The notes: generated by a model not told the origin, from the sequence alone. 64,000 bases of DNA from Dehalococcoidia bacterium (GCA_965261455.1 OZ253453.1:1145526-1209525), one strand, 5' to 3'. Positions 1,287 to 15,418 are shown, numbered from the stretch's first letter. A program made the numbers and translations.

Positions 1287-4200
1287 TTACACAATCCCGT
1301 CCGAACAGACGATGCGAATGACTTGTGGCTCCGCAGGCTGGGACCGGTCGGTGTCATCGGGCGGGTTGAGGCGGTACCGCTCCCGGAGGGCTTCGAGGCG
1401 GGTCAGGAGCACGGAGCCTTCAAGCCTCAGACTCCTGATTTCGCCCAAGGCGGTCTCAACCTGTGGCGACACCTCCCCCAGGAATATCTGCCGCAGCACT
1501 TCGATGCGGCTCAACAGTCCCGCGTCCTCATGGGCCTCGCGCATGGCGATGCCGAGGTGACGTGAGATGTACCGGCGTGCCCTTGTGTCACGCGGTCTTC
1601 TGGCCCTGCCCAGCCGTCGTTGGAAGTCTATGCTGAATGCCTCGAACGCGGCCATGACGCGCTCGTTCGTGTCTGTGGGCAGTTGCTGGGCAGATGTGTT
1701 TGGGCTGCACTCGGCCGCCGCGATGAGTTGCGCCGGGCTAAGGGCGCGCGGCTCCACGCCACTGCCGACCGCATAGCAGCTTCTCACCCCCCCGGCACTC
1801 AGCAGGACCAGCGTCTCCTCCTGCCTTGGGTCATCGAAGGGAGACGATATGGATGCCATCGTCGCCGGCGAAATAAGAGGGGCCTGCGCTCCCTCAACCG
1901 CCAGCACGTTCTGCGCGTAGCGGTCGTTCACGGCCGAAGGCTGTTGCGTGCGCGCCGACAAGGCGGAGCGTATGCCGTCGGGCAGATGGGTGATCGTTCG
2001 CCACAAGTCCGGGTCATCTTCCTGGATGCGCTGGAGCAGGGTTATGGCCCGCTGATTGGCAGCCACCTCGTCCAGCCCGTCGTCCATCTCGGGCAGGGTC
2101 TTGCCCTCGTAGATGCGGTACATGGCACTGGCGTTCAGCCGCTCGGCATCGGAGAGCAGCTTGCTGTCCAGCCCGATAAGGTCGTGGAACGACTGTATGC
2201 GCCGGTGCAGTCGTTGGGTCAGCGACAGCTCCTCGTCTACCGCCACGTCGGGCCACATGTTGTGCAGGTTGATGACCTCGTGCTCAGTGCCGATGCGGTC
2301 GATGCGCCCGAACCGCTGGATGAGCCGCACCGGGTTCCAGTGCAGGTCGTAGTTCAGCACACAGGCGCAGTCCTGCAGGTTCTGGCCTTCGGATACGATG
2401 TCCGTCGCTAGCAACACCCGAATCTCAGGGCCGGGCATGGCCTCGCGTGCTCCCAGGTTCCACGTTGGGGAGAACCGCTTCACGATTCTCTCGGCATCCT
2501 GGCTGGTGCTGCCGGTCAGCCGCGCGATGTCCGCCTGCTGCCCGTTGGGATTCAACTCCCTGTAGAGATACTCCACGGTCGTCTCGGCCTCGGAGAAGAC
2601 CAACACCTTTCCCGCCTGCACTTCAGGCCGAACCAGGAAATCCCGCAGAGCCCGAAGCTTGTCGTCGTCCTCCGGCCCGATTCCCTCGACACGCCCCAGA
2701 ATGTCTTTGAGCACATCGTGGTCAGCATCGAGGTCTCGCATCCACCTGTCGGCATCGAAGTCGACGACACTGTGGACCAGCTTGTCGCGCTCGCTGCCCG
2801 CTTGCTGACGGCGCTGCTCTTCCTGTTTGAGAACTTCCAGCAGGTCGTCCACGTCGAAGGACTGCCCGGCCAGCAGACGCGTCGCCGTGCTGCCGATGGG
2901 AACGAAGCTGGAGGCCAGCGCCTCCCGGAAGTTCCGGTTGCTGGTCATCAGGGAGCGGAGCGTGGAGCGGAACGCCTCAATGCTGGACTCCAGCCGCTTC
3001 AGCAACAGAACGCCCATCAATCTGGCAATCCTGTCCCCCGCCCGGAAGAGGTCGCGGTATTCCGGCTTCGCCTCGGCTTCTTCCTTGATGTACTCCGTCG
3101 CCCGATACCTTGCCGCCTTGTGCTCGCGCAGCAACTCCTCCAACTCTGACAGTGGTCCAGCCTTGGCGTACACCTTGTCCAGCCGGTACCCCACGTTGTC
3201 CAAGATCGGGTCGGGAAAACGCACCGGCTTGCCGTCCACGAGCGCCGTATCTCCGTACAGGTCACGTATGTCCTTTCGACGGCGGCGGATGAACACCGGC
3301 AGCAGCACCTGGTCTATCTCCGCCTTGGGCACCTTCGGCTTGTCAGGAGGTAGCGGAGGCACTCCAATCGATCCCGAAGCCTGCCACGCGCCGAACTCCG
3401 CCTCGTAGTTCTCGTACAGGGCGCGGTAGACCAGCCACTCCTGGGCATTGTGGAAGTAGGCCTCCAGGCTGACTGGCTCGATGTTCAGGCCGTGCTCCGT
3501 GTCGTGGAGGAACAGCCGGAGCTGGCGGTAGATGTCCATGGGACCTAGGTTCTGTGGTGTGGCGCTGAGCAGAATCAGCTTGTGGTCGCCCGATTCCAGG
3601 TAGGTGGTAAGTCCTCTGGAACGCTGGTTAATATTGCGGAAGTTGTGTGCCTCATCCACCAGCACTGGCCCGCGATTGCGGTATGTTTGCTCAAGGGCGA
3701 TGCCTTGTCCGGGCTGGGCTGCGTCCACGTAGCGCCCCAGTTCCTCGTCGAACTCGGCTTCAGCAGGCGCAGCGATCATGCTGTGGGAGACGACCTCGGC
3801 CCCCAAGGCGAAGCGCTCGTTGAACACCTCCCACATGGGCTTCAGCCTGGCCGGGCAGAGAATAAGCGGCGGCCCCTCGTTGGGATAGCTGACCCGAAGC
3901 TGGCGCAGCAGTTCCGCTCCGATGAAGGTCTTGCCCAGACCCACCACGTCGCCGATGTAGCACCCTCCGTAGGCCTCGATCATGGACAGCCCGCGGCGCA
4001 CGGCGTCCAACTGGAAGTTGGCCAGCTCCTGGTCTCGTGGCGGAACTGTCAGCTCGCCACCACCTACGTCGGTGTAGTAGAGCTCGTAGAGCGCCTTCAG
4101 ATACACGTGGTACGGTGGGGTCTTGGCCAGGACCCACGACCGCTCCAGCTCCGTCACGAGGGCGGCGCTGATGTCTTCCGAGTCTCCCCACAGCGCGTCG

Positions 4201-4781
4201 AACCATTCGCGCAGGGCTGCCATCTCCGCGTCGCCGGTGACGCGCACGTTGAGCTCCGTGTTGCCGGTGAACCCAGCTAGGGTGAGGTTGGATGAGCCGA
4301 CTACTGCCGCGCCGGGTTCGGCGTGGTTGTCATACCAGCAGAGGTACGCCTTGGCGTGAAGAGGGCTTCGCAGGTAGGCCCGCACCTCCACCTTGCCGAG
4401 GGACACTATGTCCCTCAGCTTCGAGACAGCGACCTCTGTGCCCTGTTCCTGAGGGAGCACGGCCACGCCCTCTGCGACGCGGGCGACGGTCTCCTGGGCT
4501 ATCTGGCTTCGCTGGCTGCGGCGCACGAGGGCGTCCACGTCCAGCCGGGCACGCAGGGCTTGGTGCTGCTGGAGGCCTAGAGCGACCTCCTCCAGCACCT
4601 GCCGGTCCGTGCGCCCCACCAAAATGCGCACCTTGTCCAGTCGCGCTAGGTCGTCGGCGACGGCCCCGAAGCCGCCGATGAAGAAGTAGCCGACAGCGAT
4701 GTCGGCCTTGGCGGAACTGCCCAGCATCTCCTTCAGGCGAGCCAGCAGCGTGGGGTCCGTCGTGGAGTGCAGGATATTCAA
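1287..4781 (-). CDS. PLD-nuclease/SNF2-type helicase fusion
   Basis: N-terminal PLD motif HAKAY..GSSNLT..NTELN; DVVGLGKT, DEAH, SATP, SEGQNLQ, QRFGRIDR helicase motifs. Confidence 0.9.
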   Translation of the reverse strand: MNILHSTTDPTLLARLKEMLGSSAKADIAVGYFFIGGFGAVADDLARLDKVRILVGRTDRQVLEEVALGLQQHQALRARLDVDALVRRSQRSQIAQETVARVAEGVAVLPQEQGTEVAVSKLRDIVSLGKVEVRAYLRSPLHAKAYLCWYDNHAEPGAAVVGSSNLTLAGFTGNTELNVRVTGDAEMAALREWFDALWGDSEDISAALVTELERSWVLAKTPPYHVYLKALYELYYTDVGGGELTVPPRDQELANFQLDAVRRGLSMIEAYGGCYIGDVVGLGKTFIGAELLRQLRVSYPNEGPPLILCPARLKPMWEVFNERFALGAEVVSHSMIAAPAEAEFDEELGRYVDAAQPGQGIALEQTYRNRGPVLVDEAHNFRNINQRSRGLTTYLESGDHKLILLSATPQNLGPMDIYRQLRLFLHDTEHGLNIEPVSLEAYFHNAQEWLVYRALYENYEAEFGAWQASGSIGVPPLPPDKPKVPKAEIDQVLLPVFIRRRRKDIRDLYGDTALVDGKPVRFPDPILDNVGYRLDKVYAKAGPLSELEELLREHKAARYRATEYIKEEAEAKPEYRDLFRAGDRIARLMGVLLLKRLESSIEAFRSTLRSLMTSNRNFREALASSFVPIGSTATRLLAGQSFDVDDLLEVLKQEEQRRQQAGSERDKLVHSVVDFDADRWMRDLDADHDVLKDILGRVEGIGPEDDDKLRALRDFLVRPEVQAGKVLVFSEAETTVEYLYRELNPNGQQADIARLTGSTSQDAERIVKRFSPTWNLGAREAMPGPEIRVLLATDIVSEGQNLQDCACVLNYDLHWNPVRLIQRFGRIDRIGTEHEVINLHNMWPDVAVDEELSLTQRLHRRIQSFHDLIGLDSKLLSDAERLNASAMYRIYEGKTLPEMDDGLDEVAANQRAITLLQRIQEDDPDLWRTITHLPDGIRSALSARTQQPSAVNDRYAQNVLAVEGAQAPLISPATMASISSPFDDPRQEETLVLLSAGGVRSCYAVGSGVEPRALSPAQLIAAAECSPNTSAQQLPTDTNERVMAAFEAFSIDFQRRLGRARRPRDTRARRYISRHLGIAMREAHEDAGLLSRIEVLRQIFLGEVSPQVETALGEIRSLRLEGSVLLTRLEALRERYRLNPPDDTDRSQPAEPQVIRIVCSDGIV

Positions 4782-4815
4782 CGGCTTGCACCTGTATGGG
4801 AGGAGTGGCTTGGCA

Positions 4816-5238
4816 TCATGCCTGCCCCCCTCTCAGCAGGGCGGCGAAGCCAGCTTGTTCAAAGTCCCGGTCGTAGGCCAATGCCTCGGTGATGCCGCGC
4901 TCCTCCATGACCAGAAAGCTGGCGCAGTCCGTGAGACTCCACCGCTGGTCACTGCGAGCGGCGTACCGCTCCACCGCAGCCCTGAACTGCGCCCCCGTCT
5001 GCTCGACGACCTCAACGTACGGGTCGGTCTCCAGGTCGTGAATCATCCGTATTGCCAATCGTCGACGGAATTCCCCCATGCCCGCCATAGCGTCAAGTGT
5101 CTCGGTCAAGACCATTTGGGTTGTCACGACGTTAGTTGTTCCGAGGCCATCGGCAACGCTGACTGCCCTTGGGTGCAGAGTATCTCTGGGATTCCATACA
5201 GCTATCCAGTAGCCTGCATCAGCGAAGACGCCACTCAT
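4816..5238 (-). CDS. vapC: PIN-domain toxin
   Basis: VFADAGYWIA, SLTDCASF, YDRDF PIN motifs; TAATG-coupled to upstream small gene. Confidence 0.9.
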   Translation of the reverse strand: MSGVFADAGYWIAVWNPRDTLHPRAVSVADGLGTTNVVTTQMVLTETLDAMAGMGEFRRRLAIRMIHDLETDPYVEVVEQTGAQFRAAVERYAARSDQRWSLTDCASFLVMEERGITEALAYDRDFEQAGFAALLRGGQA

Positions 5239-5513
5239 TAGTCCTCTTCCTTGGGATGACCGTAGAGGTAGTGTTTCTTGTTCTTGGCCAGGTCAGCGGG
5301 GAGGTCTTCCCACGCCTCCGGCGGAACATCTTTCTGCATCTCCAGGACCCGCTCTACAATCCCCGCCAGCCCTTGCTTCGGTGCCGGCGTCTCCTCCGAC
5401 ACTCCCCCAGGGGTGCCCTCCACCAATACCGTCACCTCAGCGCCCTCTTCGAGGTCTAGGGGCTCAAGCGGCGTAAGGACTCCATTCGCATACTTTGCTC
5501 GCACGGTGCTCAT
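5238..5513 (-). CDS. Antitoxin family protein (AF2212/DUF104-like)
   Basis: MSTVRAKYANGVLTPLEPLDLEEGAEVTV N-terminus, LPADLAKNKKHYLYG C-terminus; GGAGG SD before ATG 5513. Confidence 0.8.
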   Translation of the reverse strand: MSTVRAKYANGVLTPLEPLDLEEGAEVTVLVEGTPGGVSEETPAPKQGLAGIVERVLEMQKDVPPEAWEDLPADLAKNKKHYLYGHPKEED

Positions 5514-5622
5514 CTGACTTCCTCCACAAAGAGCGTTTACCTTCGTATTAGTCCGTTTCCTTCGGATGGCCGTCGAGGTTCCCGATGCAAGGCTCAATTG
5601 GTGATTAACGCGTTCACCCTGT

Positions 5623-5994
5623 TCATGGGTCTTCCTCAATCAGCACTTCGCCGCATATCCGAGCGTCAACCGTAATCCTGCTCCCGACAAGCAAAGCCAT
5701 CCCAATCAGCGATTCGCTAGCAGTTTCGATGACCACCACATCACGCTGCTGTCCGTGCCATAACACTACTCCGTCATAGTTGGACATCGTCGCTTCTTCG
5801 CCAGTTGCGAGGGTCCAAGATGTTTGACCTCTATAGGTCAAACCGAGATTCTGGATTATTTCTCTAGGTAACGCTAAGTCTCCGTTGAATCCGGTGTCCA
5901 GAACGATTTCCAAAGGAAGAAACACTCCATTCCTGTCTGAGACTTCGATAGGGACTAACAGGTCCAGGCTTTCAGAAACTCTCCCTGTAATCAT
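5623..5994 (-). CDS. Clan AA (retropepsin-like) aspartic protease
   Basis: IVLDTGFNG catalytic motif and LIGMALL C-terminal motif; ATGA overlap with MTase stop. Confidence 0.85.
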   Translation of the reverse strand: MITGRVSESLDLLVPIEVSDRNGVFLPLEIVLDTGFNGDLALPREIIQNLGLTYRGQTSWTLATGEEATMSNYDGVVLWHGQQRDVVVIETASESLIGMALLVGSRITVDARICGEVLIEEDP

Positions 5995-8900
5995 GATGTA
6001 AGAGCTGGGGACCTAATCCCCATTCTGTAGGTCGTTGAATACCCGATCCGTACTGTATACGTAATCACTCCAGGTCGACGGGCCACCAATCGACGAGTGG
6101 CGGCAGCGTGGTTAACGTCTATCTCATAGTCCTCACTGTAGATGTCAATAACCGCAAAGTTACCCCGCTCGGTGTCTTGAACTATAGGGCGTATCTTTCG
6201 GTTGTAAATTGCTTGGCCCCGAACTGCGACACCGCCGACTCCGTCAAGTTTGGGTTCCGCTGATGGCTGAGGAGCCTTTTCGACCATGCCGTAGACCGCT
6301 TCGTATGACGACAATCTTTGTTGGATTGACTCCACCTCGCCGGGGGAAAAGCCATAAAGTGAACCAACCATAATGTCGAGGCGGTGTTCATGGGTTAGTG
6401 CTCTTGCAGTTGCATCCAGACCGCAGTCCACACCCCCTAATTTCAATAGGTCGAAAACTAGCTCTTCGATTTCGTTGAGGGTGGCATCTTCTGGTAAAGG
6501 AGGGAATGGAAGTTGATTAAGTTCGCCAGCCGACACTTGGGTATTGCTATTCAACCTCCTAAAGGCGAACTCCATCAAGCTAGAATTAAGTACTCCTAGC
6601 AGAAAGACGTAACGTGAACTTTGGGGCAGCGGTATAAAGTTTGTGTGGTTCTCCGAGTAAATGTTGTTTGCTGCCACGTCATCCGGGTGGATCAAAGTTG
6701 AAATGATGCGCCTGGGCTGTTCGTTGGCAGTAACGCGTTGTGTCACGATTCCCATCCCCGTAATGTTGGGAGGCACTACGGTCGTGATACCATTGGCTAA
6801 CCACTCTTTTCCGACCCGTGTACGGGACGCTCGCCTAACATATCTCTGAATGTTTTCGGCCCATATCAGTCGGCAGGAATCGTCTGCGTTGGTCGGCTGT
6901 GCATACTCTTGGTATTTGTCAAACTGTATCTTGCCCGTCTCAGCTCTAAGGCCAAGATTCGACAACTTGACGCCAAACGAATTCATGCGCTCGAACACTC
7001 GGTACTCGAAGTCTGAAGCTCCAATGTAAAAGGCCCCGTCGTATCTTTCGTCCAGGAGTACCCGATCAGATGCCACCGTAACCGTGTCCTCCGGGTCGTT
7101 AAGGTCAGTGGGTATCGAAATCGCCCGTGTGTTAACTTGGTATGACGTGGCAGGTTCCGTTTTCTTAGTTAGATGCAGGATGATGCACTCCTGCAATACA
7201 CGCTCGAAAGTGTTATGCCTGTCGCCTATCAGTACAACGCCTTTCAGATGTGACCGCTGTTTGATTACTTTCCGAAGGTTCGTGAAGTACCTATCGGTTA
7301 ACAGAGTCCTCGGGTTAATGAAAGTCAATTGGGATCCGTCTCTCATAACTTGCAAGCTTCGTTGGATGAACAGTCCATAGGTGTTCATTCGTCCATATAT
7401 ACCCTCTTTGTACGTCGCCCGAAGTCGCTCATCACTTATAACTACATACGGCGGATTGGCGACAGCGATGTCGAACCCCCGACGCTGAGAGAACACCTCG
7501 GCGAACTCAACCCGCCAGTCGGTGGCCTCGGCGGGCGCGGGCGAGTCGGCAAGCGCCTCCCTGAGCTCGTCCTCCACCCGCTCTATATCCTGCCTGAGCG
7601 CGTCCTTGCCCGTCGTGGCCTCCATGTATTGAGCCTTGAGGCCGACGAGCTGGGCCGCGACGCTTTCTGCCCTGTGGCGGAAAAGGTCCCCGTAGTTACT
7701 TGGGCTAGGGTCAGGCCCCAACAGGCTGTCGCCGCAAAGCACCTTGAAGTCCAGGTTGGGCAGAGGCGGTGGCACATCGCCCTCGTAGTCGATGGCCAGG
7801 GAGAGCCACATCCGCAGCATGGCGATGTTGACCGCGAAGTCGTCGATGTCCACGCCGTAGAGGTTGCGCTGGATGACATGCATCTTCAGATCGTACAGCC
7901 CCTTTGGGGTCACGCCCACGTTGAACAGGGTGGTCTGCAACTCCACCAGTTCCTGCATCATGCCTAGGAGGTAGGCCCCAGAGCCGCAGGCGGGATCAAC
8001 CACGGTCACCTCATCCAGCGTCTGCGCCACCTTGCGGGCAGACGCCACCGAGATGCCGGACGTGTCGCGTTCGTCCACGAATCGTGCGATGGCTTCCGGT
8101 GTGACGCCGGTGTCCTGGCCCTCCAGGTATCCCTTAAGCGCCTCGCGGCACATGAAAGAGACCACGGGGCGGGGAGTGTAGTACGCGCCGGAGTCGTGGC
8201 GTCCGGTGACAAGCTCCTCGAACACCTTACCCAGCATCTCAGGGTCCACCGCCACTTCGACGTCGAACGGCGTGGACTCCATCACGGTGAAGTTGAAGCG
8301 GTCGAAGAGGTTTCCGAGGATACTCTCAATAACGTCATCAGGCACCACCACACCTGAGCGCTTGTCCAGACCCGTCTCCTCGAACAGGCCGCCGTTGAGG
8401 AAGGGAGGCCCGCCGATGAGAGCGTACATCACCGGGTTATTACGCATCAGGTCGCGGGACTGAGGATTGTTCAGTCCAGCAAAGAAGAGGGGCCTCAGCC
8501 TGTTGACATAGAAGTTCTTGCTCTCGCCCTCAGTGGCCCGGTGGTCACTCCACAGCGCGTTGAGATAGTCCTTGTCGCCCTTGAAAGTGAGCCACCCCTT
8601 GCGCGACAGGAAGTAGACGAACATGAGCCGGTTGAAGAGGGTCTGGACGAATCGCCGCTTGATCTCAACGTCCTCGCCAAAGCCGGAGACATTGTTTTCT
8701 GCTGCCTGGAAGACCCGCTTGTACCCCGCGAAGAACTCCCTGGTAACGGGCTCAACATCGAAGGTTTGGTCCAGGGCCAGACGGACGCTGCCGCTCTCCC
8801 GGAGGTTCCAGTAGATGTTTGAGACCTGCTGAATCGCGGTGCGGCGGGACAGATCCCGCTCCACAACGAGGCGGCGCAGGACCGGCTGCGCTCTCTCGAA

Positions 8901-9293
8901 ACTGGGATAGACCAAGTGCAGTTGGCTCGCGGACGTGTTGGTGAAGACCAGGAGCAGGTCGCCGTCGAGCTGCTCCGCGACCCGCCTGGCCGCGGCGGAC
9001 GCCTCGCTCTTGCGCACACGGTCCGTCTCCGGGGTGTCCAGAGCGATGTACACCACATGCACACCGCCGGAGTAGGCTACGCGCTCAGCGTAGGCGGGCA
9101 AGGCCACGCTGCCTGCAGTGGCGCCGAGGTCCACGCTGCCGGAGGCTGGGGCGAAGTCCAGCGCCTCGACGAACAGCGCGCGCACGGCGGCGGCCCGCTC
9201 ACCCGCAGGCGCGGCGAAGATGCGTGCGATGCGGCCCTCTACCTCAACTGCGTCGTCTCGATTCCTTATGGGCATGCGTTCGCTTTCTCCCAT
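5991..9293 (-). CDS. Eco57I/type IIG-like N6-adenine DNA methyltransferase with TRD and an extra C-terminal domain
   Basis: GAYYTP, DPACGSG (SAM-binding), NPPY (catalytic), NGGLF, TaqI-like C-terminal LLGVLNSSL; start may be 9275. Confidence 0.9.
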   Translation of the reverse strand: MGESERMPIRNRDDAVEVEGRIARIFAAPAGERAAAVRALFVEALDFAPASGSVDLGATAGSVALPAYAERVAYSGGVHVVYIALDTPETDRVRKSEASAAARRVAEQLDGDLLLVFTNTSASQLHLVYPSFERAQPVLRRLVVERDLSRRTAIQQVSNIYWNLRESGSVRLALDQTFDVEPVTREFFAGYKRVFQAAENNVSGFGEDVEIKRRFVQTLFNRLMFVYFLSRKGWLTFKGDKDYLNALWSDHRATEGESKNFYVNRLRPLFFAGLNNPQSRDLMRNNPVMYALIGGPPFLNGGLFEETGLDKRSGVVVPDDVIESILGNLFDRFNFTVMESTPFDVEVAVDPEMLGKVFEELVTGRHDSGAYYTPRPVVSFMCREALKGYLEGQDTGVTPEAIARFVDERDTSGISVASARKVAQTLDEVTVVDPACGSGAYLLGMMQELVELQTTLFNVGVTPKGLYDLKMHVIQRNLYGVDIDDFAVNIAMLRMWLSLAIDYEGDVPPPLPNLDFKVLCGDSLLGPDPSPSNYGDLFRHRAESVAAQLVGLKAQYMEATTGKDALRQDIERVEDELREALADSPAPAEATDWRVEFAEVFSQRRGFDIAVANPPYVVISDERLRATYKEGIYGRMNTYGLFIQRSLQVMRDGSQLTFINPRTLLTDRYFTNLRKVIKQRSHLKGVVLIGDRHNTFERVLQECIILHLTKKTEPATSYQVNTRAISIPTDLNDPEDTVTVASDRVLLDERYDGAFYIGASDFEYRVFERMNSFGVKLSNLGLRAETGKIQFDKYQEYAQPTNADDSCRLIWAENIQRYVRRASRTRVGKEWLANGITTVVPPNITGMGIVTQRVTANEQPRRIISTLIHPDDVAANNIYSENHTNFIPLPQSSRYVFLLGVLNSSLMEFAFRRLNSNTQVSAGELNQLPFPPLPEDATLNEIEELVFDLLKLGGVDCGLDATARALTHEHRLDIMVGSLYGFSPGEVESIQQRLSSYEAVYGMVEKAPQPSAEPKLDGVGGVAVRGQAIYNRKIRPIVQDTERGNFAVIDIYSEDYEIDVNHAAATRRLVARRPGVITYTVRIGYSTTYRMGIRSPALTS

Positions 9294-9337
9294 TGTCCCG
9301 GGATTCTAAGACTCTTCCCATCATACTCTCGATTGCT

Positions 9338-9350
9338 GTTGATAATCAAC
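9338..9350. promoter_or_regulatory. Perfect palindrome GTTGATAATCAAC, candidate XRE operator
   Basis: Inverted repeat in the AT-rich divergent gap between MTase and XRE genes. Confidence 0.5.
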
Positions 9351-9383
9351 TCAATATCAGCTACCCTATAGGAGGGGTACAGC

Positions 9384-9746
9384 ATGGATTTCCCAGAGCG
9401 TTTACGTTCATTGCGAAAGCAAGCCCAACTGAGCCAACGCGACTTGGCGGAGAAGATTGGAGTCGACTTCACCTACCTGAGCAAGATAGAGAATGGACGT
9501 GTCGAGCCTCCTAGCGAAGTGGTTCTGAAGGGGATCGCTCGAGAGTTGGCTGGTGAACTGAGCCGAAACGAGACTGAATTGGCCGACGAACTGATAACCC
9601 TGGCTGGGAAGATTCCCTCAGACTTGGCGAATACGCTCTCCCGAAATCCAGGCGCCGTCCAGTTTCTGAGGTCTCTCGGCGATGACGTGCGATCACCCGC
9701 CGAGTGGCGGAGGCTAATACGGGAACGGCGGTCGGGCCAGCGATGA
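9384..9746 (+). CDS. XRE-family HTH regulator (CapH/ImmR-like)
   Basis: LRSLRKQAQLSQRDLAEKIGVDFTYLSKIENG; GGAGG SD. Confidence 0.92.
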   Translation: MDFPERLRSLRKQAQLSQRDLAEKIGVDFTYLSKIENGRVEPPSEVVLKGIARELAGELSRNETELADELITLAGKIPSDLANTLSRNPGAVQFLRSLGDDVRSPAEWRRLIRERRSGQR

Positions 9747-10387
9747 CCACTACGTTTCTGTCAGATGCCCAGCTTGAGGTCATGGCGAGCCGCCTGTTGG
9801 GCCGATACGAGTCTCTGTATGGAGCGGTGTCCCGTCCTCCGGTTCCGGTGGAGCGCATACTGGAGGATGTGCTAGACCTCAACATCCTGTGGGACAAGGT
9901 CTCCGAACCGCCTGGCCAGTCTATTCTCGCCGAGTTGGATTCCAACTTGAAGACGGTGGTCTTCAATGAATCAAGGCGTACACTCATAACTGAGACACCG
10001 GGCCTCTACCACACCATCCTTGCTCACGAGGCGGGGCATTGGGAGGCCCACGTTGATCATGCCCTCTTTGCACAGTCGCCCTTACCCGGTTTCGAGCACT
10101 ACATGAAGTGCCTCTACCGAGGCTCCGGACCTGGCCAGGACCCGCGTGAAGTCCAAGCTCACCGGTTCATGGGGTTTCTATTGATGCCCTCACCCATACT
10201 GCTGGAGGCCGCCAGAGACGTTGACCTGGTGAGTTGGCCTGCCCTCTACAGGCTCCGTGACCTCTTCCAAGTGACCATATCGGCCCTGAAGGTCAGGCTC
10301 GAAAGACTGGGACTCGTGTTCGTGACGGAGGAAGGGAATCTCTACCCATCGCGACAGGAATATGAAGGCCAGATGCGCTTAGGATAG
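9743..10387 (+). CDS. ImmA/IrrE-family metallopeptidase (CapP-like)
   Basis: PPVPVE, LAHEAGH (HExxH), EVQAHRFMGFLLMP; ATGA overlap with XRE gene. Confidence 0.9.
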   Translation: MTTTFLSDAQLEVMASRLLGRYESLYGAVSRPPVPVERILEDVLDLNILWDKVSEPPGQSILAELDSNLKTVVFNESRRTLITETPGLYHTILAHEAGHWEAHVDHALFAQSPLPGFEHYMKCLYRGSGPGQDPREVQAHRFMGFLLMPSPILLEAARDVDLVSWPALYRLRDLFQVTISALKVRLERLGLVFVTEEGNLYPSRQEYEGQMRLG

Positions 10388-10416
10388 TACCGGTCTGCCT
10401 TTGCCATGGACTTGAG

Positions 10417-10445
10417 TTGACATTCAACGCAGTCTACATTAAGAT
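10417..10445 (+). promoter_or_regulatory. sigma70-type promoter of CBASS operon
   Basis: TTGACA-17 bp-TAAGAT. Confidence 0.7.
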
Positions 10446-10476
10446 GGGTAGCATGGAGGACAGAAGGCAGATTCCT

Positions 10477-11391
10477 ATGGCACAAGATAGCGCATTCCAC
10501 ATACTGGCTCTGGATGGTGGTGGGACAAGGGGAATCTATTCGGCCCAGGTCCTCGCCAGCATCGAACAGGTGAACGATGTGCCGATAAAAGAGCAGTTCG
10601 ACCTCATCGCCGGTACCAGCACAGGCTCCATAGTGGCCGGAGCCGTCGCGGCTGGCATTCCGATGGCCAAGATTGTCGAGCTCTTCAGAACGGAGTCACC
10701 ACGCATCTTTCGGAGAAGGTGGTTTAGTTGGCTTCATGTCCGAAGCAAGTATCCAAGGCACCCTCTCGGACAAACCGTTAGGGCTTACCTGCCTGACATG
10801 ACTCTGGGAGAAATCTCGACGCCTCTTATGATAACAAGCTCCGACATCTCCACCGGCGGTGTCCACGTGTTTAAGTCCAGGTACCTCAAGGAGCTCGGAG
10901 AGCCATACGTCAGAGATGCGAATGTCGCTCTGAGCGATGCAATCCTTGCATCATGTGTTGCTCCCACCTACTTCGATCCCATGCCGGTCGGCGACTTCCT
11001 TCTGGCGGACGGCGGGTTGTGGGCGAACAACCCATCCATCATAGCTCTGACGGAGGCGGTTTCTAAGTTCGGGCGGTCGGTTAGCCAAGTGCGCATCCTG
11101 TCCATTGGCACCGGCCATTCCGTGAATCTTTATACCGAGCACAGGCTTTGGGGGCTGCTCACGGGCTGGGGGCGTCAAAAGTTGGTCGCTTACGTCCTCC
11201 GGCTACAATCCGACGCCTCGGCGAACATGGCCAAGCTCTTGCTCGCGGACAGGTATCTCCGACTTGACCCTGAAATCGCGCCTTGGGGTTTGGATGACAT
11301 CAAACATCTGGACAGCCTGAAGGCCCTGGCGATCAGGGACTTCACTCAACAGAGTGAGGCGATTATGAAGAACCTCAAGATACCACGGTGA
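10477..11391 (+). CDS. capV: Patatin-like phospholipase, CBASS effector
   Basis: LDGGGTRG, GTSTG, DGGLWANNP motifs; directly upstream of CD-NTase. Confidence 0.88.
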   Translation: MAQDSAFHILALDGGGTRGIYSAQVLASIEQVNDVPIKEQFDLIAGTSTGSIVAGAVAAGIPMAKIVELFRTESPRIFRRRWFSWLHVRSKYPRHPLGQTVRAYLPDMTLGEISTPLMITSSDISTGGVHVFKSRYLKELGEPYVRDANVALSDAILASCVAPTYFDPMPVGDFLLADGGLWANNPSIIALTEAVSKFGRSVSQVRILSIGTGHSVNLYTEHRLWGLLTGWGRQKLVAYVLRLQSDASANMAKLLLADRYLRLDPEIAPWGLDDIKHLDSLKALAIRDFTQQSEAIMKNLKIPR

Positions 11392-11449
11392 CGAGACGCC
11401 GACCGATCTAGGAGCTTCCAAGAAAACAGAACAGAAGGAGAAGATTGAG

Positions 11450-12484
11450 ATGGCCAAGAATAATAAGGACTTCCAGGACTTTCTCAGAGATGAAGTCAAC
11501 CTGAACCAAAGTCGGCTCGACCGGCTGAATACGAGCGTGCGAGCTGTAGACGCCTACCTCAAGGACCACCTGACTGGCTATCAGAAGATGGAGCGGCAGG
11601 GTTCATATGCGCTAGGTACTCTCATCAAACCCGTCGATGACAACGACGAGTACGATGCAGACATCCAGATAGTAATGAACCCCAATCCCAAGTGGCAGGC
11701 GAAAGACTACATCAACGAGGTCCAGGAGACTCTGAAGGAGAATGACAACTATGCCGACAAGCTCAATCTCAAGACTCGATGCGTCACCATCGACTATGCT
11801 GGAGACTTCCATCTTGACGTAGTTCCCCGTGTGACTTTTGGCGACAGGCACTGCGTTTGCAACCGGAATGACAACAAATTCGAGGACACTGACGGCACTG
11901 GCTACCGGGACTGGTTCAATGAGCAGAATCGGATAACTGGCGGCAATCTGAAGCGAGCCGTCAGGTTGCTCAAGTACCTGCGAGACCACAAGAACAACTA
12001 CACCGCCAAGTCGATCTTGCTGACTACGTTGGCTGGCAACACCATTAAGCCCTCGGATGAAGGTACCGAGGGGGTAAGCACTGTGGCCGACACATTGGTT
12101 ACCGTCCTAACGAGAATGGACGATTACCTCCAGCAACACCCCTACATGCCCGAGATCAGGAATCCGGTGCTGCCAACGGAAACCTTCAATCGACACTGGG
12201 ACCAGACCAAGTATGCGAATTTCAGGAACAGAGTCAATTCCCATGCGCGTATCGCAAAGAAGGCCAAAGAGGAATCCTCAAGCGAAGATGCCGTCAAGAG
12301 CTGGCAAGAGCTGTTCGGGGAGAACTTCGGCAAGGGCTCTGGTGGTAGTAGCAATGGAGGAGGCAATGGTGGGGGCGGACGAAGCAATCCGCCAAGTGGA
12401 CCAAGGAACAACCCTAGTGGAATTGCCGCCCCAGTTGTAAGCATTCCCAGGGTAGTCACCCCAAGGAAGCCTTACGCCAGATGA
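11450..12484 (+). CDS. CD-NTase (SMODS/cGAS-like cyclic oligonucleotide synthase)
   Basis: QGSYALGTLIKP..EYDAD..HLDVVP nucleotidyltransferase motifs; Gly-rich linker and PRKPYAR tail. Confidence 0.92.
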   Translation: MAKNNKDFQDFLRDEVNLNQSRLDRLNTSVRAVDAYLKDHLTGYQKMERQGSYALGTLIKPVDDNDEYDADIQIVMNPNPKWQAKDYINEVQETLKENDNYADKLNLKTRCVTIDYAGDFHLDVVPRVTFGDRHCVCNRNDNKFEDTDGTGYRDWFNEQNRITGGNLKRAVRLLKYLRDHKNNYTAKSILLTTLAGNTIKPSDEGTEGVSTVADTLVTVLTRMDDYLQQHPYMPEIRNPVLPTETFNRHWDQTKYANFRNRVNSHARIAKKAKEESSSEDAVKSWQELFGENFGKGSGGSSNGGGNGGGGRSNPPSGPRNNPSGIAAPVVSIPRVVTPRKPYAR

Positions 12485-13122
12485 AACCGACTACTGCCGA
12501 CTTGGAGGGGCTCACTCGATGCTTTCCCGGCCTGCTGTACGATGCGAATGCCAACGAGATAGCTGGCGAGATCACGTTCTGCGCAGCATACGACGGTGGG
12601 ACAGACCAGGTGCGGATCGGGAACGATGAGGCACATCGACGATTGGCGTCATTCCTTTGCGACTCATACTCCCTGCGTATCGATTTGAACTCCATTGACA
12701 GGAACGGTTGGCCAAGGGTTTATGAAGTTGGCGGCCGCCATCAGGCCATCTTGACAAAGCACAACGTCGATGTTATTGACCTGCATTTCTATCCAGACGG
12801 GTCATGTTGTCTGGGAATCAGATTCTCTCCCGAACGGTTCCTAACAGTTGAGCGGTTCACAGACGAACTTGTAATCCCGTTCTTGTATCGTTTGTCCTAC
12901 GTGGACAGAAATGGACTGCTTGCTGCCAGAAGAGACCTTTGGGGAGAGTACCCTCACGGCGATGACGGGGTCCGGCAATTCATCAGCGAAATGCTCGACA
13001 TGGCTAGTAGAGATCCTGGCAGGAATGAACTTTGTCCTTGTGGCAGCGGCCGCAAGTTCAAGAGATGCCATCTCGACGATGTGGAGGCATTGAAGAGCGC
13101 ACTCGGGCGCCAGCGTCGGTAG
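12481..13122 (+). CDS. Prokaryotic E2-like protein fused to SEC-C zinc motif
   Basis: PRVYE..HFYPDGSCCLG (E2-like H..DG..CL), GEYPHG, GRNELCPCGSGRKFKRCH; ATGA overlap with CD-NTase. Confidence 0.75.
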   Translation: MKPTTADLEGLTRCFPGLLYDANANEIAGEITFCAAYDGGTDQVRIGNDEAHRRLASFLCDSYSLRIDLNSIDRNGWPRVYEVGGRHQAILTKHNVDVIDLHFYPDGSCCLGIRFSPERFLTVERFTDELVIPFLYRLSYVDRNGLLAARRDLWGEYPHGDDGVRQFISEMLDMASRDPGRNELCPCGSGRKFKRCHLDDVEALKSALGRQRR

Positions 13123-13402: not shown

Positions 13403-15418
13403 TTGATCGTCGCGGAGCCAAGAACACGACCGTTGAACGGTGCGACACAAGCCGGACCGCGCTTCGAGAGGGCGGTCCGGGGCTACGTGCGCGCCTACGC
13501 GTCGCTGCACGGACGGCGCAAGGCAGCCGAGGACCTCGGCGTGTCCCGCCATACCCTCTGGCGATTCCTCGAACGGGGCCACACGGGGCGCGCCGTGCCC
13601 TCCGCCGTCCTGAGCTCCGTCGGCGGGGGCGGTCGAGCGATTGAGGCGGCCACGTTCGAGATCATCATCGACCTGGAAGGCCTGCGGCCCGACCCCGCGC
13701 TGCGCTCCCTGCGCCAGGGGCTTGAGGAGGCGCTCCTGCTGCTCTGCTCTGCGCCCCTGGCCACCGTGGACGAGCTGTCCCGCTTCGGGCGCGTTCCGGC
13801 CTCCACGCTGCGCGACCGGCTGAAGAAGTTGACCGAGCGGGGTCTTGTGGACTCCGTGCCGCACCACCTGAGCGTCCTAGGGACTCGCCCCCAGCGCCGG
13901 TACTTTCCGACGGAGAAGGGCGTCACCGCCGGGGGCGCAGCCACGAAAGGCCGAGCGCACATGCTGCGCGCCTACCCGGTGTCGAAGCAGTGGTTCCGGC
14001 TACTGGCCGAGCGTTTGGACGCCGTGGCCGTGCTCCACCGCGTCGCCGCCAGGGTCGCCGACGCTGACCCGCACGAGAAGCCCGTGCGCGTAGACCACTA
14101 CCGCAACGGTCCCTACGACATGCTGCTCACCCTGTCCGGTGGCCGCACAATCGGCCTGCTGCGCCAAGGACCGGCCCTGCCCACGTCCAGGCTCCGCTAC
14201 CGCCTCAGGAGCATCGAGCGCCTGGACAGCAGCGACACGCCCTTCGTCACCCTGGTGCTGACCCACGCAGACCAGGCCACCCGCAGGGCCATCCGTTCCC
14301 TGGGCGACCCATCGGAGCACCGCAGGACCTTCGTTGCGACGGAGGGGGAGCTTCTGGCCGGAGACCACACGGGAGTCGTCTGGCAGCAGTGCGGGAGCGG
14401 TCTGGGCGAGGCCGTGCGCATCCACGCCGACGCATCCCTGGCGGGCATCCTGGCCTTGGCGGAGCGCATGCTGGACTCATCCTACCCCTTCCTCCGGGAC
14501 AACCCGGAGCCGAAGCCCGGCTCCCTCTATCCCTCCGGCGTGCAGGCCGCCATGCCGGAGCCCACGGAGCAACTCACACCGGCCCTCTCGGTGCAGCTGA
14601 CCCGCGCCGAGAAGGACGTTCTCGACCTGCTGGCCGCCTGGCCCCTGTGCACCCGTGAGCAACTTTCCGGCTTGATGAGGGGCGTCACCCTGCGCCGGGT
14701 CAACCAGGTGCTCCGCTCACTCTCCCAGCACGGCCTCGCGCGGACGGACGAGCCCCTACACATGCTCTCCGACGAAGGGCTGACGTACCTGGCCCGCAGG
14801 GACCGGGCCGCCGTCGGCCTCACCCTCGACCGCTGGAGCGCCGAGCCTCTGTACTTGAACGCCGACATCTACGCCGGGACTGCCGTGCGAGCCCTCGCTT
14901 CTCAGATACGTCACCACGCCGGCGTCATCGATTTCGCCGCCGCCCTGTCCGCCGAGGTCGCCCGGTCCCCCGACCACGACCTATTCGACCTGCTGCCCAC
15001 GTCCCGCTCCAGCATCGGCTATCGCTACGACTGGACCACCTACGTGATCCACCCCGACGCCTCCTTCACCCTGGAATACAAAGGCCGGTGGCGTCCGTAC
15101 CTGCTGGAGTTCGAGCGCCGGGCCACGACGCCGAAACGCGTCGCCGCCCGCCTGAAGTCCTACCAGCGCTACTTCCTGAGCGGATGGGCTGAGCGGGATC
15201 ACGAGGGGCGTCTGCCCCGGGTGCTCTTCGTCTTCGAGTCCCCCGGCAGCGAGGACGCCTTCCTCGACGTCGCCGACACGGTGAAGGGGGCGCCCATCAT
15301 CACATCGAACGCAGAGACCCTTGCCGAGCGGGGCATCCTGGGGGACGCATGGGTTCTTCCGCCTCCGCACTCCCTCGACAGGAGGCCCTTGTCAGGCCTT
15401 AACCAGGGAGGACAATGA
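13403..15418 (+). CDS. Replication-relaxation (Replic_Relax)-like protein with HTH domains
   Basis: N-terminal HTH, two wHTH-like segments, C-terminal IHPDA..LLEFER..RLKSYQRY PD-(D/E)xK-type motif. Confidence 0.7.
   Translation: MIVAEPRTRPLNGATQAGPRFERAVRGYVRAYASLHGRRKAAEDLGVSRHTLWRFLERGHTGRAVPSAVLSSVGGGGRAIEAATFEIIIDLEGLRPDPALRSLRQGLEEALLLLCSAPLATVDELSRFGRVPASTLRDRLKKLTERGLVDSVPHHLSVLGTRPQRRYFPTEKGVTAGGAATKGRAHMLRAYPVSKQWFRLLAERLDAVAVLHRVAARVADADPHEKPVRVDHYRNGPYDMLLTLSGGRTIGLLRQGPALPTSRLRYRLRSIERLDSSDTPFVTLVLTHADQATRRAIRSLGDPSEHRRTFVATEGELLAGDHTGVVWQQCGSGLGEAVRIHADASLAGILALAERMLDSSYPFLRDNPEPKPGSLYPSGVQAAMPEPTEQLTPALSVQLTRAEKDVLDLLAAWPLCTREQLSGLMRGVTLRRVNQVLRSLSQHGLARTDEPLHMLSDEGLTYLARRDRAAVGLTLDRWSAEPLYLNADIYAGTAVRALASQIRHHAGVIDFAAALSAEVARSPDHDLFDLLPTSRSSIGYRYDWTTYVIHPDASFTLEYKGRWRPYLLEFERRATTPKRVAARLKSYQRYFLSGWAERDHEGRLPRVLFVFESPGSEDAFLDVADTVKGAPIITSNAETLAERGILGDAWVLPPPHSLDRRPLSGLNQGGQ

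Follow-up and report, generated by a model that had tools for sequence, protein, structure and literature searches.

Why would a DNA methylase of the restriction type carry a small extra domain at its C-terminus, and why would its gene run directly into a gene for a retropepsin-like protease? The question is raised by a stretch of 64,000 nucleotides from a Dehalococcoidia bacterium (GCA_965261455.1 OZ253453.1:1145526-1209525), the whole of which is called the window here. What we find is a toxin–antitoxin-like module that a restriction-type methylase has captured. The tail, as we call the final 79 residues of this methylase, is best explained as the cognate partner of the adjacent retropepsin. 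With a probability of about one half, we read the two as a "plug + protease" module that is hard-wired to the methylase; the protease would be latent only while the methylase–tail protein is made, and the locus would be addictive. The features of the locus, from the methylase leftwards, are:

5991..9293, minus strand: Eco57I/type IIG-like N6-adenine DNA methylase of 1100 amino acids (aa), comprising core, target-recognition region, linker and fused tail
6231..6284, minus strand: Pro/Gly-rich linker of 18 aa joining the methylase body to the tail, from the translation
5994..6230, minus strand: fused tail domain of 79 aa, belonging to an unnamed family of small retropepsin partners
5623..5994, minus strand: retropepsin-like aspartic protease of 123 aa with a DTGF motif, from reading frame, motif and fold
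5594..5626, minus strand: open reading frame (ORF) of 11 codons, its ATG overlapping the protease stop, from alignment with loci L049 and L052
5238..5513, minus strand: AF2212-like (DUF104/COG2880) antitoxin of 91 aa from an internal ATG, from PF01954
4816..5238, minus strand: VapC-type PIN toxin of 140 aa, its start overlapping the antitoxin stop by one base, from a match in the PDB
1287..4781, minus strand: HKD (phospholipase D-type nuclease) plus Snf2 helicase of 1164 aa, from Pfam and PADLOC

An initial annotation of this DNA had described a linker and a small domain after the target-recognition region of the methylase, with the methylase stop ATGA-coupled to a DTG retropepsin gene that is followed by an antitoxin–VapC pair and then the helicase. 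Linker and tail are present at the coordinates listed, and the layout is borne out. In the raw sequence, the methylase stop (TGA) shares bases with the protease ATG. The methylase scores 97 bits against Eco57I PF07669 in Pfam (cut-off 25.3), 42.4 against MmeI_Mtase and 35.5 against N6_Mtase. In PADLOC it matches REase_MTase_IIG at 1.3e-63, and its best labels are type IIG and type II methylases. The S-adenosylmethionine-binding motif DPACGSG and the NPPY motif are invariant across seven fused orthologues. Residues 1-170 matched no nuclease family of Pfam or PADLOC, and the HKD–Snf2 helicase, the presumed restriction partner of the methylase, is a separate protein of the operon. The helicase scores 40.6 bits against PLDc_2 and 63 bits against Helicase_C in Pfam, and its residues 11-865 match the PADLOC candidate C3a139 'HKD+Snf2' at 2.8e-59. 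A promoter and terminator scan of 4600-9500 gave counts no higher than those of shuffled sequences.

The protease scores 50.7 bits against TIGR03698 clan_AA_DTGF (cut-off 57.35) and 18.9 bits against PF13650 (cut-off 24.3). Because these family-model scores fall below the curated cut-offs, we class it as a divergent subfamily of the clan AA retropepsins. All 29 homologues that were aligned have the DTGF motif (D33-F36) and Gly98 unchanged. Its AlphaFold model, with a predicted local distance difference test (pLDDT) score of 94.4, has the fold of a single-lobe retropepsin. The best Foldseek match to the model is 5c9f_A, the retropepsin-like protease of Rickettsia, with an expectation value (E) of 2.1e-5, template modelling (TM) scores of 0.64/0.60 and a root-mean-square deviation (rmsd) of 3.8 over 126 columns; the proteases of xenotropic murine leukemia virus-related virus (XMRV) and then human immunodeficiency virus type 1 (HIV-1) follow. 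For the DUF104 gene, the ORF spans 5238-5639 and the likely start is at 5513; its product scores 38.5 bits against PF01954 AF2212-like (cut-off 21.6). In PMC2701414, COG2880/DUF104 is placed in the AbrB superfamily, as an antitoxin that partners PIN toxins. The PIN protein has no Pfam match and reaches only 15.2 bits against the NCBIfam VapC equivalog (cut-off 80), and a phmmer search of the PDB aligns its residues 3-133 with Mycobacterium tuberculosis VapC20 (5wzf_A, E 3.5e-9).

A fused domain seen once could reflect a lost stop codon or an assembly error, so we asked how often the fusion occurs. Beyond the window it is carried by seven further clusters at 90% identity and by eight genome loci. 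A search limited to longer proteins gave 8 matches among 129 candidates, and six of these are full-length methylase–tail proteins of 1024-1136 aa, with tail identities of 99, 82, 75, 71, 67 and 66%. Scanning one genome per species gave 41 loci, all in metagenome-assembled genomes of Dehalococcoidia/Chloroflexota. Eight of the 41 (L043-L049 and L052) are fused, and in all eight the protease starts at or just after the tail stop. L043-L047 are close relatives of the window (95-97%), two of them from a single assembly, and L048, L049 and L052 are more distant (48-63%). Kin genomes are not independent, and the fractions given here and below describe samples and are not statistical tests. In a sample of 401 genomes of the phylum, the tail family is patchy, occurring in 34 genomes with at most four copies in each, and the fused form is found only in the window's genome.

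The part of the methylase just ahead of the tail has been more changeable than the tail itself. An alignment of the seven fused orthologues shows variable linker columns and strong conservation of the tail. In P0158, the same tail follows a target-recognition region that differs. In L050 and L051 the methylase is unfused; its residues 1-628 are nearly identical to those of the L048 methylase, and beyond that point the two diverge. Downstream of it come three small ORFs, an ORF of 223 aa and the protease. In the 223-aa ORF, a second copy of the C-terminal part of that methylase's recognition region runs on into linker and tail. We take these two loci to be a fusion broken by insertion, with a third recognition type ahead of the tail, which brings the recognition types seen in that position to at least three. 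The ratio of nonsynonymous to synonymous substitution rates (dN/dS) for the tail is 0.08-0.19 in the 8 of 15 pairs for which dS can be computed, the other 7 being synonymously saturated; between the fragment of L050/L051 and L048 it is 0.16. By these comparisons, the fusion is recurrent and its tail is under purifying selection, and it is neither a singleton with a lost stop nor an error of assembly. The three inserted ORFs (L050 8198-9506, L051 8201-9527), of 212-223, 74-79 and 144 aa, have no Pfam matches, and the last two may be another toxin–antitoxin pair.

What is the tail when it is not attached to a methylase? It matches nothing in Pfam at E <= 10 or in NCBIfam at E <= 1, and a Pfam run on 109 of its relatives gave only chance-level matches. 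Yet its family is a large one: phmmer over 1.84 billion cluster representatives finds 808 relatives at E <= 1e-3, of which 76 reach E <= 1e-10, each relative being a cluster at 50% identity. The members are mostly free-standing proteins of ~90 aa, and about 110 of the 150 best listed have at most 140 aa. Among the longer members, of which 18 were read and 36 scanned against Pfam, the tail is combined in a few ways. It follows a C-terminal methylase fragment (P0005, P0006, P0013, P0020, P0021, P0010 and P0048), an AF2212-like head (P0011, P0014, L013 and L053) or DUF433 (P0045), and it is joined to a retropepsin in a single chain in P0018, P0038 and P0043. In P0038 (358 aa), tail and retropepsin are followed by a hydrophobic C-terminal region that looks membrane-spanning; therefore, some members of the module may be membrane-anchored. 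Other members have two or three copies of the tail in tandem. In L076, a single 276-aa frame with three tail domains precedes a protease (8729-9858) and a second tail–protease pair follows at 10001-10634, and in L077 one protease is preceded by three separate tail genes (9645-10961). We regard the tail as the representative of a previously undescribed partner family, and the comparisons support its being a copy, grafted onto the methylase, of a small protein that is usually free-standing and encoded ahead of a retropepsin. Separate translation of the tail from an internal start was considered and rejected, the Met in the linker region not being conserved in the orthologues.

The AlphaFold model of the tail, built from 109 sequences, has a pLDDT of 88.9 and the order helix–strand–strand–helix–strand. 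Foldseek of this model against the PDB gives nothing at E <= 0.001. The best hit of a wide VIA-align search, FdhD at Z 3.9 (rmsd 3.9, 67 aligned), is within noise, and the ESM Atlas returns only unnamed 'hypothetical protein' clusters of 86-92 aa at 0.90-0.91.

Tail and protease go together well beyond the methylase. The single chains of P0018, P0038 and P0043 are Rosetta-stone fusions of the two. In the phylum sample, the protease lies directly downstream of the tail in 23 of 30 tail loci, and a profile picks up short remnants in three further ones. Searching the same sample with the protease gives matches in 56 of 401 genomes, and the tail lies directly upstream in 29 of the 29 best protease loci outside the window. 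In each of the tail and protease counts of this sample, one locus belongs to G077, an unpublished genome; no central claim rests on that genome or on a second unpublished one, G262. Among the species-representative loci L054-L083, the protease is found in 17-18 of 30. The other 12 are orphan tails with the protease absent or decayed, and some of them adjoin visible protease remnants. The 29 protease loci and these tail loci were all sampled within a single phylum. In metagenomes of the Joint Genome Institute (JGI), the protease accompanies the tail at 13 of 19 tail loci; of the six without it, three are truncated by contig ends. The neighbours of the module are often toxin–antitoxin genes. Viral contigs gave 72 pattern matches to the module, none of them confirmed, a result that speaks neither for nor against a link to phages. 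As far as gene content and order can tell, the genomics of the module match the signature of a type II toxin–antitoxin system, because the two genes overlap, are patchy and multiple, leave orphan upstream genes, have DNA-binding heads in some cases and include no top-scoring protease that is without a tail.

If the two proteins are partners, they should bind each other, and modelling supports this. The complex was predicted from two protease copies and one tail, with our own alignments supplied. The median score of the model is 0.73 (runs of 0.73, 0.71 and 0.74), and the best of three controls scores 0.22. Of reference cases, 116 of 157 solved complexes and 2 of 215 mismatched pairs reached that mark. 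The runs share at least 88% of contacts, with a partner pLDDT of at least 82. The modelled contact is made at two places: strand 55-60 of the tail pairs with residues 54-58 of the protease, and tail residues 65-76 contact D33 and residues 35-38 of both protease copies. The C-terminal segment of the tail is thus predicted to sit in the catalytic cleft over both aspartates.

The course of events that we propose is as follows. Elsewhere, a partner gene of ~90 aa overlaps a downstream gene for a DTGF protease of ~120 aa, and the two make up a small mobile module that resembles a toxin–antitoxin pair. One clade of methylases within the Dehalococcoidia has this partner joined in frame to the methylase C-terminus, and the target-recognition region ahead of the tail has been exchanged several times. 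The tail would dock on the protease dimer and act as a pseudo-substrate plug, its C-terminal segment lying over the two catalytic aspartates, so that the protease would be latent only in the presence of the methylase–tail protein. Loss or truncation of the methylase cassette would leave the protease unplugged, and an unplugged protease would make the restriction-like operon of methylase and HKD–Snf2 helicase-nuclease addictive. The anatomy, the recurrence, the selection and the gene linkage are observed, and the binding and plug geometry are modelled; that the protease would be toxic, the tail its inhibitor and the operon addictive is what we infer.

Several points weigh against this reading. 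One group concerns the generality of the fusion. All fused cases found come from one class, the Dehalococcoidia, and none of the 19 JGI tail loci is fused to a methylase. A FastTree tree of 257 tail domains over 84 columns is poorly resolved and does not tell a single fusion origin from several; its smallest split with all 25 methylase-linked tails takes in 93 rows, with support 76. A second group concerns the complex. The calibration on solved complexes and mismatched pairs is only rough for a three-chain job with our own alignments. The cleft part of the model may reflect the large number of retropepsin–peptide complexes already solved, and the model fits a substrate as well as an inhibitor. 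The plug segment is only moderately conserved, none of residues 65-76 being among the near-invariant columns of the family. Finally, the comparison with classical type II systems is imperfect. Most free-standing tails are the bare domain without a DNA-binding domain, and the antitoxins of those systems are labile, whereas the plug here belongs to a large and presumably stable protein. L050 and L051 suggest, moreover, that the tail works detached from the full methylase and that the covalent link is not essential.

Which of the other genes belong with methylase and protease? The fusion recurs, whereas the five-gene order of the window is conserved only in the near-identical relatives L043-L047. 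L049 has methylase–tail, protease and helicase with both junctions overlapping and no toxin–antitoxin pair, and it is flanked by the housekeeping genes for AspRS and AsnC. L048 has no helicase; its protease is followed by an unknown 189-aa gene and a ParE toxin gene. In L048, L050 and L051, a ParE-type pair stands in place of DUF104–VapC. In L052, a 26-codon remnant of the helicase 5' end (10605-10682) comes right after the protease, followed by ~4 kb of other genes, two DUF104–PIN pairs, one of them decayed, and then the full helicase. In unfused relatives from genome G036, 5' fragments of the helicase are repeated up to three times between methylase and helicase. The repeats consist of the first 26-52 codons of the helicase and are seen in L105 of G036 (6501-9575, up to three times) and in L104 (7670-8925). 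These fragments look like traces left by cassettes that were inserted or exchanged repeatedly at the helicase 5' end. The first seven bases of the 11-codon ORF of the window, and only those, match the helicase start of L049 and L052; this ORF is probably a vestige of the original helicase start, marking the left edge of an inserted toxin–antitoxin cassette.

Base composition also varies along the locus. The fraction of guanine plus cytosine (G+C) is 0.634 in the methylase core, 0.495 in the recognition region, 0.511 in the tail and 0.495 in the protease, and then 0.606 in the toxin–antitoxin pair and 0.64 in the helicase. Within 5500-7500, recognition region, tail and protease are a single low-G+C block (~0.50) with flanks of ~0.63-0.64. 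This block between a methylase core and a helicase of higher G+C suggests that recognition region, tail and protease were imported as one cassette. We read the region as one in which cassette exchange acts between the conserved methylase core and the 5' end of the helicase. The conserved unit would be methylase–tail and protease, usually with the HKD–Snf2 helicase. DUF104–VapC would be one of several interchangeable insertions at a hotspot at the helicase 5' end, outside the plug + protease module.

This bears on the model with which the initial annotation closed, in which the freed protease cleaves the DUF104 antitoxin and thereby releases VapC. The gene order of the window and of L043-L047 suits it, and there is a precedent in Microcystis, where the gene for the orthocaspase MaOC1 is followed by a type II toxin–antitoxin pair and the protease reportedly cleaves the antitoxin of that pair (PMC7935541). 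However, the VapC step lacks comparative support, because the five-gene order is not kept in L048-L052, the pair differs from tail and protease in G+C (0.606 against 0.50-0.51) and its site is a recombination scar. The pair is absent from L049, gives way to a ParE-type pair in L048, L050 and L051 and is separated from the protease by ~4 kb in L052; we hold the release of VapC to be extremely improbable. A guard that does without VapC would fare better. The methylase would be a sensor platform, and phage interference or cassette loss would unplug the retropepsin dimer and kill the infected or cured cell, an extension that we find doubtful. As an abortive-infection device, the methylase-tethered plug would keep the protease latent until a phage anti-restriction factor binds, unfolds or degrades the methylase, or until methylase synthesis stops during infection, and the freed protease would damage proteins of the cell or the phage. 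This shares its anatomy and its binding model with the plug + protease reading. In L049 the module belongs to a compact operon of three genes, in which tail and protease overlap and so do protease and helicase; the fusion has been retained through at least three target-recognition types; and the window is a defence island, with a cyclic oligonucleotide-based antiphage signalling system (CBASS), CapH/CapP-like regulators and a Lamassu-type ATPase nearby. We nevertheless rate it as unlikely, since no trigger is known, free-standing modules are common away from any restriction context, L048 retains methylase–tail and protease without the helicase, and PADLOC holds no model that matches the protease.

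The protease need not be toxic at all. The tail could be a docking site or substrate that recruits it for the housekeeping of a restriction-like complex. There it might cut the methylase back, in the linker or in the tail, or it might degrade the HKD–Snf2 protein on under-methylation, a built-in form of the restriction alleviation for which ClpXP is known. The protease gene of L049 overlaps both its neighbours, the methylase on one side and the nuclease-helicase on the other, which agrees with this; the modelled cleft position of the tail C-terminal segment suits a substrate too, and the single-chain tail–protease proteins resemble self-processing polyproteins. Such processing is distinctly unlikely all the same. 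Most modules have no methylase or helicase nearby and the linker is unconserved, and tails without a protease occur whereas proteases without a tail were not seen (29 of 29), which is a better fit to a protease that must be neutralised. The fusion might also be a neutral accident, in which the stop between the methylase and an adjacent partner gene was lost and the tail works as it does when free. Adjacent co-directional genes fuse readily, and in L050/L051 the tail persists on its 223-aa fragment at a dN/dS of 0.16 against L048, so attachment to a full methylase is dispensable there. Against an accident, the fusion has been retained at tail identities of 66-99% despite repeated exchange just upstream, and none of the eight fused loci has regained a stop in the variable linker; we hold it to be very unlikely.

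The plug + protease module can be compared with several known systems. APRc of Rickettsia conorii (PDB 5c9f) and the retroviral proteases share its single-lobe retropepsin fold and DTG-type catalytic motif. APRc is membrane-embedded; the window protease is ~20% identical to it, has no membrane or secretion part and has a dedicated upstream partner. The anticodon nuclease PrrC is held latent by the type I restriction enzyme EcoprrI. The shared idea, a harmful enzyme in a restriction–modification operon that is proposed to be silenced by physical association with a restriction–modification protein, is the template for the guard reading. The difference is that the effector here would be a protease, and that what associates with it would be a special domain in covalent linkage with the methylase. 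With type II toxin–antitoxin systems with modular antitoxins, such as DUF104/COG2880–PIN (PMC2701414), the module shares two small, overlapping, co-directional genes, patchy multi-copy spread, orphan upstream genes with decayed downstream ones, an upstream protein sometimes fused to AbrB-like (AF2212) or DUF433 heads, and a predicted neutralisation by direct protein–protein contact. It differs from them in that the downstream gene encodes an aspartic protease and not a nuclease, kinase or similar toxin, and in that the candidate 'antitoxin' here is the C-terminus of an 1100-aa methylase. MaOC1 is a cysteine protease, and the adjacency of protease and toxin–antitoxin pair that it shares with the window is not conserved among the relatives of the window.

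The combination of methylase, Snf2 helicase and phospholipase D (PLD) nuclease also recalls class 1 of the defence island system associated with restriction–modification (DISARM), with its DrmMI methylase, DrmD Snf2 helicase and DrmC PLD nuclease. The methylase matches DrmMI and PglX weakly and type IIG strongly, and the helicase matches DrmD and carries a PLD (HKD) domain. A DISARM identity is rejected, since all DISARM scores lie far under the curated cut-offs, with DrmD at 152.8 bits against 610 and DrmC_I at 19.3 against 133, and neither DrmA nor DrmB was matched among the 12 ORFs scanned; the top PADLOC label is the candidate 'HKD+Snf2'. Retropepsin-domain proteins of ~100 aa are described in PMC3973734 as adjoining type III CRISPR loci in Sulfolobales. 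In the literature searched, which left most subscription journals outside, no paper was found on a retropepsin with an antitoxin-like partner or with a methylase fusion.

The tail had also been likened to small DUF5678-like proteins that normally stand alone before clan AA proteases. The second half of this holds for the tail's own unnamed family, but the likeness to DUF5678 (PF18929) was not borne out. The tail falls short of the model cut-off, with no match even at E <= 10, and none of 109 family members matches at E <= 1. A whole-genome DUF5678 scan matches another place only and does not recover the tail. Of 20 DUF5678 loci in the phylum, one has even a weak downstream protease match. The last two of these comparisons include one locus from genome G262, which also supplies one of the 15 DUF5678 stretches aligned below. 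The two families are proteins of similar size with an apparently similar order of helix, G-x-W/F-V-A-V strand hairpin, helix and strand. This order comes from a weak profile alignment: hhalign of 109 tails against the 15 DUF5678 stretches gives E 0.021 and a probability of 2.25%, with 49 columns in register. A distant relation between the tail and DUF5678 is possible. P0043 has a sub-threshold match to DUF5678 (E 4.5e-4, 20.4 bits against 23.2). In L150, a 201-aa protein (512-1402) consists of a tail domain and a stretch that, judged by eye, looks DUF5678-like, and the next gene carries a DTGA motif of the protease kind; this protein may link the two families.

To our knowledge, small retropepsin-like proteases are common in bacteria and archaea, and their roles are mostly unknown. 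Here one retropepsin subfamily is tied to a dedicated partner family of 808 clusters that has no Pfam model and no match to a solved fold, and the model offers a concrete mechanism in the form of a putative C-terminal pseudo-substrate plug. As the fusion shows, a restriction-like enzyme can have the module built into it and retain it through exchanges of its specificity regions. Should the protease be toxic, this would be a new class of toxin for toxin–antitoxin biology and a new route to an addictive or self-guarding defence locus. If the methylase were in addition a sensor platform, the locus would be a protease-based guard or addiction device inside a restriction-like system, and it would give the widespread small prokaryotic retropepsins and their unnamed partner family a first assigned role. 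The cassette hotspot between the methylase and helicase genes should be useful for reading the defence islands of Dehalococcoidia.

Divergent from the methylase, at 9384-13122 on the plus strand, is the CBASS operon, with genes identified by Pfam and PADLOC:

9384-9746, plus strand: helix–turn–helix (HTH) protein, a CapH-like regulator
9704-10387, plus strand: M78/IrrE-like peptidase, a CapP-like regulator
10417-11391, plus strand: patatin effector
11450-12484, plus strand: CD-NTase
12481-13122, plus strand: E2-like protein with a SEC-C motif

It is followed on the plus strand by a 671-aa ORF (13403-15418) without a PADLOC match, which has ~70% G+C where its surroundings have 50-64%. At the other end, the window starts within an SMC/LmuB-like ATPase. 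Its N-terminal part, at 3-1110 on the minus strand, runs off the window start and matches PADLOC LmuB at 1e-16, so there is probably a Lamassu-type system beside the helicase. An 80-aa ORF (868-1110) precedes and overlaps this ATPase.

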